Shown: piece by piece, positions 1-51,413 of the stretch
How the letters are laid out: every line of letters begins with the position of its first letter
Numbering within the stretch: the stretch's first letter is position 1
Virus record (IMG/VR): IMGVR_UViG_2563366798_000003
Span: 1 to 51,413 of that record
Origin: a virus
Lineage: Duplodnaviria > Heunggongvirae > Uroviricota > Caudoviricetes
Strand: one strand, 5' to 3'
DNA: 51,413 nucleotides
Translations under genes and position numbers: made by a program
The notes under the pieces: model-generated
What the model saw: the letters and a program-made list of their open reading frames with translations, nothing else
The model's database searches: none
Told to the model about the DNA's origin: nothing

Positions 1-1143
1 CTATGCTGTTTTGATATCTACGATAATCCAGTCTTTACCACGATCATCATTGTATCGGTCGGTCATTTTTCTGGATTTATGACCTAACAACTTTTGCGTA
101 TCCAGCCCCTGTTCCCGATATAACCGTTCTGACAGAGATCGCTGCTCATGAAATGTGGGCGCAGTTCCTGGCTCCCATTTTATGCCACATTTTTCCCTGG
201 CCTTTTTAAAAGCCGTTGTAAGAGTATTTGCAGAAACCTGGTCTCCTCTGTTTGCTTGAGAGGTAGTGTGACGGTAATGGACCAGATATTTACTAACAAC
301 AGCATCCCTGCACTGAGATATAACTTCACGAAGGGTAATATTCAGAGCATCGCATTTCAGGCTAAGCGGAATAGCAAGTTTTGAACCGGTTTTTTCCTGA
401 GTAATGTGCAACATGTCGTCCCATATATCAGAGAATTTCAAATTGCAGATATCGCCTAAACGTTGTCCAGTGACAAGAGCAAGTAGCATCCCGCATTTTA
501 AATAGGGCTGCCGTCTGCTTACGCTGTCAAATATTGCCTGCCATTCGGACAGTGATAATCTTTGGCGGTTTACTCGATTTCGCGGTTGTTTTGTTGCCTG
601 CGCTGGGTTAAATCCTGGCGGAACATGTCCTGCGTGTTGTGCTTCTTTGAAGACGTCGATCAACACCATTCTCACGACTTGCGCCATCCTGTTATGACCT
701 TCAGCCTTTACAGCATCAATTATTTCGGCAATATCAAGTGCGGTAATATCCTTGAGGTGTTGCATTCCACAATGCTCACGGAAGAGACGAATGGGTTTGC
801 CTTTTTGCCGATAGGAGTTGGGTCTTAGTTCATTATGTTGCAGCCTGTCCTCCTGGATAGAAATATATTTATCAAGCCATTCTGTCACCGTAATGTCTGA
901 GCGCCTGCCTTTCATTCTTTCCAGACGCTCATTGACGCTTAATATTTGTCGGGTACGTTGTTCAGCAATAATGGTATTTGCTTCAGTAGCAACCTGTTTT
1001 GCTTCATTCTCATCAGTTCCTAAACTATGAAAACGACCGGATAGTGGATGTTTGTATTGCCAATATACCTTTCCGGTTCGCTTATCTAATTTGCAATATA
1101 AATTGGGTATAGAGATTTTGTGAGATCGGGGTCTAGCAGCCAT
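1..1143 (-). CDS. int: tyrosine integrase, lambda Int family
   Basis: 380-aa ORF; C-terminal region (TFHEQRSLSERLY...LLGHKSRKMTDRY) resembles the lambda Int catalytic C-terminus; stop codon at positions 1-3; overlaps upstream xis-like ORF by 11 nt. Confidence 0.9.
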   Translation of the reverse strand: MAARPRSHKISIPNLYCKLDKRTGKVYWQYKHPLSGRFHSLGTDENEAKQVATEANTIIAEQRTRQILSVNERLERMKGRRSDITVTEWLDKYISIQEDRLQHNELRPNSYRQKGKPIRLFREHCGMQHLKDITALDIAEIIDAVKAEGHNRMAQVVRMVLIDVFKEAQHAGHVPPGFNPAQATKQPRNRVNRQRLSLSEWQAIFDSVSRRQPYLKCGMLLALVTGQRLGDICNLKFSDIWDDMLHITQEKTGSKLAIPLSLKCDALNITLREVISQCRDAVVSKYLVHYRHTTSQANRGDQVSANTLTTAFKKAREKCGIKWEPGTAPTFHEQRSLSERLYREQGLDTQKLLGHKSRKMTDRYNDDRGKDWIIVDIKTA

Positions 1144-1369
1144 CAGCGATTATCCGTTGGAGTTTTGGGTTTGCGTTGATTGGGAGTTGCGGTTCTGCAA
1201 GCGTTCCTACAAAACGGGAATTTCGGTCAATCATCCAGTAGCGACCAACTTTTATAGCGGGTGGGGCCATCATTTTCCCTTGCGCGTATTTTTTCAGAAC
1301 TCGCTCACTTGGTGCTAAGTCCCCAAATTCTTCTTTAGCCCAGTCCTGTAAAGTGATTAGTCGAGACAT
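1133..1369 (-). CDS. xis: putative excisionase
   Basis: 78-aa ORF immediately upstream of and overlapping int on the same strand, the canonical xis position; no sequence identity to lambda Xis recognised. Confidence 0.55.
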   Translation of the reverse strand: MSRLITLQDWAKEEFGDLAPSERVLKKYAQGKMMAPPAIKVGRYWMIDRNSRFVGTLAEPQLPINANPKLQRIIADGC

Positions 1370-47535: not shown

Positions 47536-48285
47536 ATGGATTATGTTTGCTCCGTAGTTTTCATCTGTCAATCATTTGATTTAATTATAAACAGGAGAGT
47601 TATCTCGTTCAAAAAAAATTCATTGTTTATTGTAAGCGACAAAATTAGAAGAGAGTTACCAGTATGCCCCTCTAAACTAAGAATTGTTGATATAGATAAG
47701 AAAACATGTTTATCCTTTTTTATCGACGTGAATAATGAGTTGCCTGGCAAATTTACTCTTGATAAGAATGGCTATATTGCTGAAGAGGAACCTCCATTAT
47801 CGCTTGTTTTTTCTCTGTTTGAAGGGATTAAAATAGCAGACTCACACTCCCTTTGGTTAAAAGAAAGACTATGTATATCCTTACTTGCCATGTTCAAAAA
47901 ACGCGAAAGTGTAAATTCATTTATACTAACAAATATAAATACATTTACCTGTAAAATTACTGGAATAATCAGTTTTAATATTGAGCGGCAATGGCATTTA
48001 AAAGATATTGCGGAATTGATTTATACGAGTGAAAGTTTAATAAAAAAAAGATTAAGGGATGAAGAAACGTCATTTACTGAAATATTGAGAGATACTAGGA
48101 TGAGGTATGCAAAAAAACTCATAACTTCAAACTCTTATTCTATCAATGTCGTAGCCCAGAAATGTGGCTATAACAGTACTTCATATTTCATATGTGCATT
48201 TAAAGATTATTATGGTGTCACGCCATCTCATTATTTTGAGAAAATAATCGGCGTCACAGATGGAATAAACAAAACAATTGACTGA
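47536..48285 (+). CDS. appY: AraC-family regulator, AppY-like
   Basis: 249 aa, strongly AT-rich, C-terminal AraC HTH; sequence and position next to ompT match my recollection of E. coli AppY. Confidence 0.75.
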
Positions 48286-48534
48286 TAATATTTATTACAA
48301 GTTGTCTACATGTTAATTATAATATTATACAGCGTGTTTTTTGATGTGATATTCTGGAACCATTAATTTGTAATTGGGTTGCTGTCGCCTATTTTATACA
48401 CACTATAATTGATGGTTTTCTATGTGATTTAGTTAATAACCTTCTGGGTTTATTTTAAGGGTTAATTGTTACATTGAAATGGCTAGTTATTCCCCGGGGC
48501 GATTTTCACCTCGGGGAAATTTTAGTTGGCGTTC

Positions 48535-49488
48535 TTAAAATGTGTACTTAAGACCAGCAGTAGTGATGAAGTTATAGTTTTCTATGCCTGCTCCATTTTT
48601 GCTGTAGTCTGAAGTGTTATTATTGTGATCATAAAGTGAAGTATTACCTTTTTTATTCGTAACCCGATTCCATGCGCCTTCAACATAAACTTTTGCGTTA
48701 GGTGTGACGTAATAACCTGCATTGACTGCAACAGAATAGTAATTTTGGTCTTTGACCTTACTGCGATAAGTGATTCTTTTTCCCGGGTCATAGTGTTCAT
48801 CGTTATCAGATGATTCCACCCAGCCGCTGTATTTAAATGTGCCACCTAGCTCAAAATCTTCATAACGATAACTTCCAGTCAAGCCAATGTAGGGCATTTT
48901 AAAACGTTGTTTGTAGCCGATTGCTCTTTCTCCATTCGGGAAGGAGCCGATATCATCTCTGAATCCCTCCTCAGAACTGTAGATATAGGAACCACCTCTG
49001 GCTGTAAAGCTATAACGGCTTTCCTGATATCCGGCCATGAGTCCCAGGCGGTAATTGGGTTCGTTGAGGAGCCAGCCTTTGATATTCAGATCAAATTCGT
49101 TGGCATAATTGAGTTGTGTATCAGGATGTCTACTTTCATCCGTCCAGGTTCCGGGGTTACTGGAATCCATCCAGTCCTGATCGACCATATTGCCACCTCG
49201 GCTGCCGAGTGTTGTCCAGCCAGCAGCCCCGATAGATATCTGAGGCATCAAATCCCAATTAATTGCACCTTTAATAATTGCAGCGTTATTGAATTTCCAG
49301 TCAAGTTGACTGACTTTTCGGCTTCCTTCTTCGGCTAGATAAACACGCTCTTTTGTTTTTCCGCTCAGAGTTCCAAGACTAATGTCCGCATTTATGTTGT
49401 CAGGAGTAAACGATAAAGTCTCGGTAGAAGCAAAAGAGTTGATCGCAATAGGGGTTGTCAGGACTATTCCCAGAAGTTTCGCCCGCAT
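48535..49488 (-). CDS. ompT: outer membrane protease OmpT (omptin)
   Basis: 317 aa matching E. coli OmpT (MRAKLLGIVLTTPIAI...TAGLKYTF). Confidence 0.95.
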   Translation of the reverse strand: MRAKLLGIVLTTPIAINSFASTETLSFTPDNINADISLGTLSGKTKERVYLAEEGSRKVSQLDWKFNNAAIIKGAINWDLMPQISIGAAGWTTLGSRGGNMVDQDWMDSSNPGTWTDESRHPDTQLNYANEFDLNIKGWLLNEPNYRLGLMAGYQESRYSFTARGGSYIYSSEEGFRDDIGSFPNGERAIGYKQRFKMPYIGLTGSYRYEDFELGGTFKYSGWVESSDNDEHYDPGKRITYRSKVKDQNYYSVAVNAGYYVTPNAKVYVEGAWNRVTNKKGNTSLYDHNNNTSDYSKNGAGIENYNFITTAGLKYTF

Positions 49489-50038
49489 AAAAGTTCTCCA
49501 TTCAATCGTTTTAATGATTGAATATGTATTTTTTATATCTAACTTAATGAGTCAATTACATATTGCTCCACTGTTTATATTTTGTTTAGTATTGAATGAT
49601 TATCACAATGCGCTATCTGTTTTTGGTTTAATTATCTGTTATTGTTTCATATTGCGGTTTTACTGTGTGGTTTTTTTATGATTTTGTGGTGCTTTTATCT
49701 ATTTAAGTGCCATGCCTTTAGAGGCATATAAGCGAAAATAGCATGAGGTTTATCCTCAATTACTATGTTTTTTAGTACAAAAAAGAGGGACAAAACTGAG
49801 ACACATAAGGCCTCACAAAGGTCTGCAAGGCTTCACATGTATTGAGATGTTAATAAAATGTAGGCTTGTAATTTTGATATAAATGGTAGATAAAACCTTT
49901 CCCCAAAATAAAAACGAACGTCAATAAAATCAAACGGTTGAATAAAGTTGATTTTGGCTAATAAAAAGACAATAAAATAATTTTTATCATTAAATATCAA
50001 TGAATTGAACTTAATGTTTTTATATACTGCTGCGCCAT

Positions 50039-50190
50039 ATGGGCTGGACTGAAGCCGCAGACCTGATTGTTAAAGGTATGGAAGGCGCAATCAACGCCAA
50101 GACCGTAACCTATGACTTCGAACGTCTGATGGAAGGCGCTAAGCTGCTGAAATGTTCAGAGTTTGGTGACGCGATCATCAAAAACATGTA
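50039..50190 (+). pseudogene. icd: 3' fragment of isocitrate dehydrogenase gene (icd C-terminal duplicate, icdC-like)
   Basis: Encodes ...[49 protein letters not shown]-stop, the Icd C-terminus, with no upstream coding continuation. Confidence 0.8.
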
Positions 50191-50214
50191 ATCACTACAT
50201 GTGTTAAATATTGT

Positions 50215-50244
50215 AACGGGCGTATAACACGCCCGTTGTTTTAT
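50215..50244 (+). terminator. rho-independent terminator downstream of icd fragment
   Basis: AACGGGCGT / ACGCCCGTT stem with ATAAC loop followed by GTTTTAT. Confidence 0.6.
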
Positions 50245-50260
50245 GTAAGTTTGCTAACGG

Positions 50261-50293
50261 TTATCAAAATTTTATCAAAATAAGTTATCAAAA
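50261..50293 (+). repeat. three direct TTATCAAAA repeats
   Basis: TTATCAAAA at 50261, 50272 and 50285; the second matches IHF-like consensus WATCAANNNNTTR. Confidence 0.5.
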
Positions 50294-50465
50294 CCTCTTA
50301 GTTGTTTGGGGTCGGTTGGTCAGTCAGATGACAGTTCTACTGCCAGGTTCCTATTAGACATTCCTCTATTTGGTGGACGCTCGTTAATATTTAGATCCGC
50401 TATGTGTCAGGTGCGGGCATTGTTATAAATGCCAATTGATATAACGTCAGCTCGTTTATCTCATC

Positions 50466-50876
50466 TTACAGAACCTCAACAACTTCAAACTCTTCCATAA
50501 TCAACTCCATATCTTCAGAAAAATGACCTTCCTGGGTGAAAAATCGTTGATGCTCTCTCTGCCAATATTCAAGGCTCAAATCGCCTTCACCTTCCTTGCG
50601 AGCTAACTCGGCAGTAACATCACAAAAACACACCAGTTGCATCGACACCAGCCTGGTCACGCATACCGGTACATCCTGGCCGTCAAGGATGATGTTATAG
50701 CTCCCAATCCTTGGGGCAAATTCTTCCTTCTGATAAGAGGCATAAGAGCCACAGGAGGCCGTTTTAATCCCTTTTTCTATAAGTGCTGCAAGCTCGTTAG
50801 CCAGTTCAGGGCTGTCGCCCATTTGCCAGGCATTCGCGTCCGGATATTTCATCTTTAGTTCATCAACCTTACCCAT
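50466..50876 (-). CDS. hypothetical protein (136 aa from internal ATG; longest ORF reaches 51026), possibly ASCH/PUA-like
   Basis: ORF 50466..51026 in track; family assignment is a guess from size and a G-x-K-T motif. Confidence 0.4.
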   Translation of the reverse strand: MGKVDELKMKYPDANAWQMGDSPELANELAALIEKGIKTASCGSYASYQKEEFAPRIGSYNIILDGQDVPVCVTRLVSMQLVCFCDVTAELARKEGEGDLSLEYWQREHQRFFTQEGHFSEDMELIMEEFEVVEVL

Positions 50877-51150
50877 TACACGTCCTTTCTGATTGTAAAT
50901 AATAGAGAAATAGCTGAGCATTAATTGTTCGAATATTAACAGTGATGCTTTCTTGCTAATATCATAGTTCGTTTTTCGCTCAAAGCGGGCTGTTTGGTTC
51001 TTTTTCATGTGGGGTGAGAAATTCAAGGAGGCGTTGAGACGTTTAAATTTTCACAACGCTACTTTGCGCCATTCTTTACCTCAATCATCATGATAACAAT
51101 CGGTTTGACGAAAGTGATCGCGCCTACGCGGATATTATCGTGAGTATGCT

Positions 51151-51413
51151 TCATCGCCATTGTTCCCCAAATACAAAACCAATTTCAGCCAATGTCTCGT
51201 CCATTTTTTCGATGAACTCCGGCAGCATCTCGTCAAAACTCGGCATGTACTTCTCATGTCAGGCTACTTATTTCCTGAACGGGGTTTTGCTATCACGTTG
51301 TGAATTTCAGAAGCGGTAATGACGCCGAGCCGTAATTTGTGGCACGCATCATCTCCCTGTTTGACAGCCCTCACGTCGATCCCGGTACGCAGCAGGATAA
51401 TGTCCGGTGCCAT
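51151..51413 (-). pseudogene. exo: second, internally deleted copy of exo (prophage remnant; continues beyond window)
   Basis: 51107-51255 aligns with 3196-3346 and 51256-51413 with 3765-3920 of the intact exo locus; about 420 bp missing at a TTCAT microhomology. Confidence 0.75.

Follow-up and report, generated by a model that had tools for sequence, protein, structure and literature searches.

How does the 3′ end of an isocitrate dehydrogenase gene (icd) come to lie alone near the right end of a viral sequence record, and what are the three short direct repeats that follow it? We addressed these questions in a stretch of 51,413 nucleotides, hereafter called the window, in which a sequence-only reading had recognized the displaced original icd 3′ end at the attR of an icd-integrating phage. 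We conclude that the region is very probably the attR of a lambdoid prophage, roughly 50 kb in length, which carries a phage-21-type int-xis pair and is inserted in icd beside a decayed e14-type element, the TTATCAAAA triplet being arm sites of that relic. The host of the prophage is most likely Escherichia marmotae. The arrangement is already known from phages 21 and e14 and from tandem arrays at icd, and nothing in it is new in kind. Indeed, phage 21 and e14 are classical examples of elements that insert into icd, with a surrogate 3′ end of the gene provided by the phage and the resident end displaced (PMC6379469; PMC12803456). The features on which our interpretation rests are given in Table 1.

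Table 1. Features near the two ends of the window, with the basis of each assignment.
Feature	Position	Strand	Basis or remark
Integrase, phage 21 type	1..1143	-	99% identity to phage 21 Int
Excisionase	1133..1369	-	100% DNA identity to annotated excisionase of E. coli 23AR0806
P arm of 21-type attachment site, right end of prophage	49800..50027	+	Homology to phage 21 attP left arm
Candidate 21-type arm site CTTTCCCCAAAA in P arm	49897..49908	+	Fits YYTTCCCCAAAA; about 128 bp left of core
IHF-like consensus matches in P arm	49928-49940 (AATCAAACGGTTG); 49995-50007 (TATCAATGAATTG)	+	2 of 8 in window
Left edge of attP/attB homology, TGCTGCGCCATATGGGCT	50028..50045	.	Four-way alignment
Displaced resident icd 3′ end, last 53 shared codons and stop	50028..50191	+	DNA homology, tblastn
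icd terminator hairpin and T tract	50213..50245	+	Folding, conservation, phage 21 annotation
Remainder of putative relic e14-type P′ arm	50246..50425	+	Homologous to e14 and to tandem prophage of strain MS1657, up to GGTGGACGCTCGTTAATATTTAG
Three TTATCAAAA direct repeats	50261..50293	+	Starts 50261, 50272, 50285; spacing 11 and 13 bp
ASCH-domain gene	50466..50876	-	Pfam PF04266; 92% to ASCH gene in E. coli 2547 prophage
e14-type int stub, last 19 codons, internal stop	51051..51107	-	Match to IntE C-terminus
DUF1317 fragment fused to int stub, and lambda-exonuclease pseudogene with internal deletion	51108..51413	-	Remains of older element's early-left operon

The icd fragment and its terminator

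An open reading frame of 50 amino acids at 50039-50191 corresponds to the C-terminus of isocitrate dehydrogenase (IDH), and when we used the K-12 IDH C-terminus as a tblastn query, residues 20-74 matched window positions 50024-50188 with 93% identity. The DNA homology to intact icd starts at 50028 and not at 50039, which gives the fragment a length of 164 nt (54 codons). Its reading frame is closed upstream by a TAA at 50012-50014, beyond which we found the AT-rich non-coding phage arm and, before that, ompT and appY. The sequence-only reading had described an isolated IDH C-terminus with no upstream continuation, as we found, and had named membership in an intact icd as an outcome that would refute it; this is ruled out by the stop that closes the frame at 50012 and by the phage arm and ompT that precede it. 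Homologous fragments elsewhere are annotated as incomplete isocitrate dehydrogenase without the N-terminus.

The terminator hairpin that had been noticed after the icd end was recovered as well. It lies at 50213-50239, with an 11-pair stem that includes 6 G-C pairs, a 5-nt loop and TTTTATG immediately after it, and its folding energy in a 76-nt context was -20.1 kcal/mol, for a z of only -1.7 against shuffled sequences. The hairpin is present in every icd copy examined, whether from the host, phage 21 or e14, and in e14 it is maintained via compensating changes in the stem (GGGCGT..ACGCCC vs GGGAGCG..CGCTCCC). A terminator is also annotated at this place in the GenBank record of phage 21 (OL657228.1). 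The homology that is common to the host, 21-type and e14-type copies of icd stops at the terminator and its T tract.

Integrase and left end of the window

When we compared the integrase of the window with that of phage 21, we found 99% identity overall, the first 180 amino acids being 100% identical, in contrast to an identity of about 60% with IntE of e14. The protein contains the Pfam domains Arm-DNA-bind_1 and Phage_integrase. An Int that is orthologous to that of phage 21, together with a P-arm site of the YYTTCCCCAAAA type, indicates at the sequence level that the window carries a phage 21-type integration module.

Since the int stop codon occupies positions 1-3 of the window, the attL P′ arm and icd should lie just beyond the left edge, where the sequence-only reading had also placed the intact icd. 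Among contigs with an identical Int, a full icd of 416 amino acids was found 113 bp from the int stop in all 24 that were read; the window starts at the int stop. Most IMG/VR contigs with these integrases end exactly at this stop codon, so prophage calls routinely miss the attL arm. The right edge of the window falls on the ATG of the exo pseudogene, and the stretch was seemingly cut on gene calls at both ends. It is without the attL P′ arm on one side, and on the other it runs about 1.4 kb past attR, into what remains of the older element.

The right junction of the prophage

We aligned, column by column, the attR of the window with attB from empty sites, attL from the identical-Int relatives and attP of phage 21, and this four-way alignment placed the switch of partner at 50027/50028. 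The window tracks attP through 50027 and attB from 50028 on. In the comparison with the e14 and phage 21 attachment sites that the sequence-only reading had proposed, the DNA to the left of 50028 proved to match the left arm of phage 21 attP (93% identity, and up to 96% with other icd-integrating lambdoid phages), which bears out its view of an attR. The DNA to the right shows homology to an e14-type arm. Homology common to phage and host runs from 50028 to about 50245, just beyond the terminator, and the recombination core presumably corresponds to the left edge of this segment, at 50028..50045. With the right end of the prophage placed at 50027/50028, the final ~1.4 kb of the window lie outside it and are the remains of an older element. 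The practical value of knowing this true right end is mainly for annotation.

Both IHF-like matches in the P arm sit between the P-arm site and the core. They are kept in the attP of phage 21 despite neighbouring substitutions, the second one reading TATCAGCGAGTTG there, and by sequence they appear to be better IHF-site candidates for the 21-type prophage than the match found within the repeats.

Just inside attR, at 47536-49488, lie appY and ompT, which are cargo of the right arm of the 21-type prophage. They are 99.9% identical to the annotated appY and ompT of E. coli strain 582. In K-12, the same two genes belong to the DLP12 prophage, at another attachment site.

The junction can be accounted for by the following scheme. 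The phage would bring its own copy of the last ~54 icd codons plus the terminator, and Int would act on the core, at 50028 or just to its right, so as to leave icd whole at attL with the phage-borne end. The resident icd end would pass to attR as a promoterless fragment, that at 50028-50191, and excision by Int and Xis would reconnect this fragment with icd.

Empty sites and the origin of the displaced end

To find loci without the prophage, we used the protein encoded by the ASCH-domain gene, which led to six distinct places. At five of them (L006, L007, L008, L009 and L011), which are E. marmotae records, an intact icd runs directly into DNA corresponding to window positions 50028-51413, with 97.4-99.3% identity. 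L006 is an E. marmotae genome (CP025979; PMC6650469), and the sixth locus, L010, which comes from a genome listed as E. marmotae (CP099351.1; PMC12299893), has the same prophage right end as the window, with ompT and appY. When the right flank was compared with complete E. coli genomes, the best identity was 92% and only 2 records covered at least 80% of the junction; it was E. marmotae that matched instead.

Because the empty-site genomes run an intact icd into 50028-51413, the fragment in the window is the resident icd end from the time prior to insertion of the prophage. Thus, of the earlier claim that this is the displaced original icd 3′ end at attR, both the attR and the displacement of a resident end stand. 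What does not stand is the word original, insofar as it means the host's own end, since the e14-arm homology and the int stub point to an e14-type surrogate. The "host" icd 3′ end of E. marmotae appears to be itself phage-derived, and to consist of an e14-type surrogate end followed by its P′ arm. In K-12, the true host flank, at icdC, has the terminator and lacks the repeats, while the e14 arm downstream of icd reads GGTTATCAAAA-TT-TTATCAAAA-AAAG-TTATCAAAAC and is homologous to the window through about 50425.

A different host flank was seen in E. coli A37, where an icd fragment adjoins ycgX (L001, 4293-4380). This flank reads GTTATAAAATAACGTATCAAAAGTCAAGTGAACACA, unlike that of K-12 icdC; it resembles a degenerate TTATCAAAA triplet and is apparently host-side. 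By this likeness, the "native" icd flanks of some E. coli may also be old e14-type relics.

The relic e14-type element

Homology to the e14 arm covers the triplet and about 130 bp beyond it, and so extends well past the icd-like segment. It is followed by the ASCH gene, which occupies the e14-type cargo slot between the P′ arm and int. Elsewhere, the same slot holds ymfD/ymfE/lit (e14), a P-loop ATPase gene (MS1657) or a DUF262 gene (689R6). The int stub translates as QTDCYHDD*GKEWRKVAL*, compared with QTDRYHDDRGKGWSKVAL* at the C-terminus of IntE; tblastn gave 74% identity over IntE residues 357-375, and the DNA is 86% identical to the 3′ end of e14 intE. A breakpoint at about 51107 marks the deletion through which the older element lost int and xis together with what lay next to them. 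A 33-codon ORF on the minus strand (51059-51160) spans this point, joining the N-terminus of DUF1317 to out-of-frame int 3′ sequence. At the six related loci, we found no second icd fragment within 10 kb to the right.

The e14-arm homology, taken together with the int stub and the DUF1317 and exo remnants, leads us to the view that an e14-type element once occupied icd and has since decayed. Its integration at icd would have supplied the surrogate icd end; decay would have followed, and the 21-type prophage would have inserted later at the same core.

Two small RNAs are known from prophages at icd. The e14 sRNA C0293 (co293; L012, 2212-2283) lies between the P′ arm and ymfD, and svsR is encoded by the NC-SV prophage at icd (PMC12803456). 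The homology between the relic arm of the window and e14 ends at about 50425, before the position that would correspond to C0293 (window 50440-50470).

The repeats and the type of integrase

The three direct repeats had been reported from the sequence alone, and they proved to be exact: the copies starting at 50261, 50272 and 50285 are the only exact occurrences of TTATCAAAA in the 51.4-kb window. No other 9-mer is tripled within 40 bp anywhere in the window, and none of 200 simulations under a first-order Markov model gave such a cluster. The observation that one repeat is IHF-like was also confirmed, in that repeat 1 with its spacer (50262-50274) reads TATCAAAATTTTA and fits the IHF consensus WATCARNNNNTTR, which repeats 2 and 3 do not. 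This is a consensus match, one of 8 to WATCARNNNNTTR on both strands of the whole window, and it arises from repeat 1 abutting repeat 2. In the attR of L010, aligned to 50250-50295, two of the three repeats are found, because one 11-bp unit has been deleted. The loss fits what is expected of a decaying and unconstrained relic arm.

A triplet of another motif is found downstream of the terminator in phage 21 and in the identical-Int relatives, where three copies of YYTTCCCCAAAA stand; these are annotated as attP subsites in the phage 21 record (OL657228.1). The candidate site CTTTCCCCAAAA in the P arm of the window holds the only exact TTCCCCAAAA of the window, and it is found at the same place in phage 21 attP. 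In e14, TTATCAAAA occurs three times downstream of icd, and a single GGTTATCAAAAC lies to the left of icdC at a distance of about 118 bp, a 3+1 layout that mirrors the three P′ sites and one P-arm site of phage 21.

We scanned one genome per bacterial species for the TTATCAAAA triplet at exact spacing and obtained 65 loci across Enterobacterales. The icd coding end lies 72-74 bp upstream of the triplet in 63 of the 65, and every full-length Int found beside the triplet in these species-representative loci is nearer to IntE than to Int21. At least 8 loci have truncated icd fragments that start with MLRHMGW, and these look like junctions of the same kind as that of the window, in tandem arrays. 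Since the scan selected exact triplets, it cannot gauge the conservation of the repeats. As for exceptions, one locus from Moraxella lincolnii (L039) is without an icd or Int match within 8 kb, and in Rosenbergiella gaditana (L055) the icd end is about 1.95 kb from the triplet. In L083 the triplet is at the edge of the locus, where icd would fall outside.

As the first scan had selected on the repeats, a second set of loci was picked by the Int protein alone. Three copies of TTCCCCAAAA were found 21-46 bp from the int stop in 11 of 11 informative Int21-type loci, and the TTATCAAAA triplet in none of them. Conversely, among the loci chosen for an IntE-type protein, six have the TTATCAAAA triplet and none has the 21-type triplet; most IntE-type viral loci were uninformative, either because cargo puts int more than 1.5 kb from attL or because the contig ends at int. 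Over the first 70 alignment columns, which we take to be the arm-binding domain, identity between the two groups of integrases is only 61-63%. Some loci combine both motifs. Four Int21-type viral loci (L196, L200, L226 and L235) have the 21-type triplet by int and TTATCAAAA at about 405 bp, in the P-arm position, and one IntE-type locus (L144) has the reverse combination, like the window. These five look like hybrid tandem-array junctions in both orders, or like chimeric attP sites.

The triplet of the window stands at the position of phage 21's three YYTTCCCCAAAA, and the motif tracks the type of Int, which argues that the repeats are most likely relic P′ arm sites of an e14-type integrase, outside the junction proper of this prophage. 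As P′ sites of the older element, they would have been recognized by the N-terminal domain of its e14-type integrase; today they would be inert and take no part in excision of the 21-type prophage. Both the binding of Int at these arm sites and the inertness of the relic arm we infer from sequence comparison and from analogy with better-known attachment sites. Work by Wang and colleagues in 1997 reportedly dealt with the arm-site specificity of 21 and e14, each integrase preferring its own arms. In PMC7192596, which cites Wang et al. 1997 on this point, icd-targeting integrases are said to differ in their preference for recombinant att sites in tandem arrays. Which type of integrase last occupied the site may be read from a triplet beside icd: TTATCAAAA points to the e14 type, YYTTCCCCAAAA to the 21 type.

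Alternative explanations

Could the fragment, the terminator and the repeats all be native host DNA, with the repeats as host or IHF sites that serve this attR? The fragment really is the pre-integration resident end, repeat 1 does fit the IHF consensus, and the A37 flank by ycgX shows a weak, degenerate likeness to the repeats. We nevertheless hold this explanation to be quite unlikely and largely refuted, given that the repeats are absent from the K-12 icdC host flank and present in e14's own arm, to which both the triplet and the following 130 bp or so are homologous, and that an int stub comes next. Moreover, another site motif goes with the 21-type Int at this position. If lambda is a guide, an attR requires just a core-type site on its B′ side. 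It is very unlikely that the repeats are instead functional sites of some other protein, such as IHF, Fis, Xis or DnaA, that serve to regulate the cargo or the 3′ region of icd. This would suit the IHF match that spans repeats 1 and 2, which is found in e14 too, and the persistence of the triplet in many species without an int in the fetched 8 kb; TTATCAAAA is also close to a weak DnaA box, being one mismatch away from TTATCCAAA. However, a DnaA-box or IHF-only reading is made less likely by the switch of motif with Int type at the same position. A fourth copy occupies the mirror position in the P arm of both systems, L010 has lost a repeat, which speaks against constraint, and the persistence without int is in part an effect of having selected exact triplets.

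It is extremely improbable that the e14-type element downstream remains active and that two live prophages therefore stand in tandem, even though a truncated icd, the triplet and a full e14-type int do occur together elsewhere (L044, L049 and MS1657). For the visible part of the element it is refuted by the 19-codon int stub with its internal stop, the internally deleted exo and the DUF1317 remnant fused to the stub. The same remnant lies beside intact icd in several E. marmotae genomes, with non-phage genes within about 1 kb, and the missing second icd fragment within 10 kb weighs in the same direction. A last variant accepts the relic e14-type arm and supposes it to be maintained rather than inert, as a pre-armed landing site at icd for e14-type elements, as a modulator of 21-type excision or in an icd 3′ role with IHF or another protein. 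The exact-spacing triplet is found beside icd in about 60 Enterobacterales species, often without an integrase nearby, and we give this variant a small chance. The reading of the triplet as decayed arm sites of an e14-type integrase is the one we retain.

Comparison with known systems

The integration module of the window is closest to that of phage 21 (OL657228.1, M61865.1). Besides the near-identical Int, the two share xis and a DUF4222 gene in the same order, a P arm with the TTCCCCAAAA site at the same place, and an icd-like 3′ segment with its terminator; the identical-Int relatives of the window have their three YYTTCCCCAAAA 21-46 bp from the int stop. They differ in the right arm, where phage 21 has sitA and other genes in place of appY and ompT, and in that the window presents an attR and not an attP.

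To the right of the junction, the likeness is with e14 attL in K-12, which has the icd surrogate end, the terminator, three TTATCAAAA at the same 11- and 13-bp spacing, an arm of about 130 bp and then cargo followed by a leftward int. In K-12, however, e14 still possesses intE and xisE, and its attR contains icdC, whereas in the window only the 19-codon int stub is left, and the related loci showed no distal icd fragment within 10 kb; the cargo is also different, with ASCH in place of ymfD/ymfE/lit.

As a whole, the locus resembles the tandem arrays of integrative elements at icd and the K-12(21) lysogens (Wang et al. 1997, J Bacteriol 179:5705, as cited in PMC7192596 and PMC12803456), where likewise a 21-type prophage occupies the icd core and has an e14-type element as its resident neighbour. 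The window has the same hybrid junction, made of a 21-type P arm, the core and an e14-type P′ arm. It differs from those arrays in being a natural one, most likely of E. marmotae, and in that its e14-type partner has decayed.

Finally, the lambda attP (P1, P2, P′1-P′3; H1, H2, H′) offers a more distant parallel. Here too, three close direct repeats lie in the P′ arm by int and one copy in the P arm, IHF-like sites are placed between the P-arm site and the core, and Int has an Arm-DNA-bind_1 N-terminal domain. By this analogy, the TTATCAAAA triplet would correspond to lambda P′1-P′3, as well as to the three YYTTCCCCAAAA of phage 21. The motif is different from that of lambda, and the arm sites of the window are candidates assigned by sequence. 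The distance from core to P′ sites is also different, at about 235 bp in the window, because the arm must hold the icd 3′ end and its terminator.
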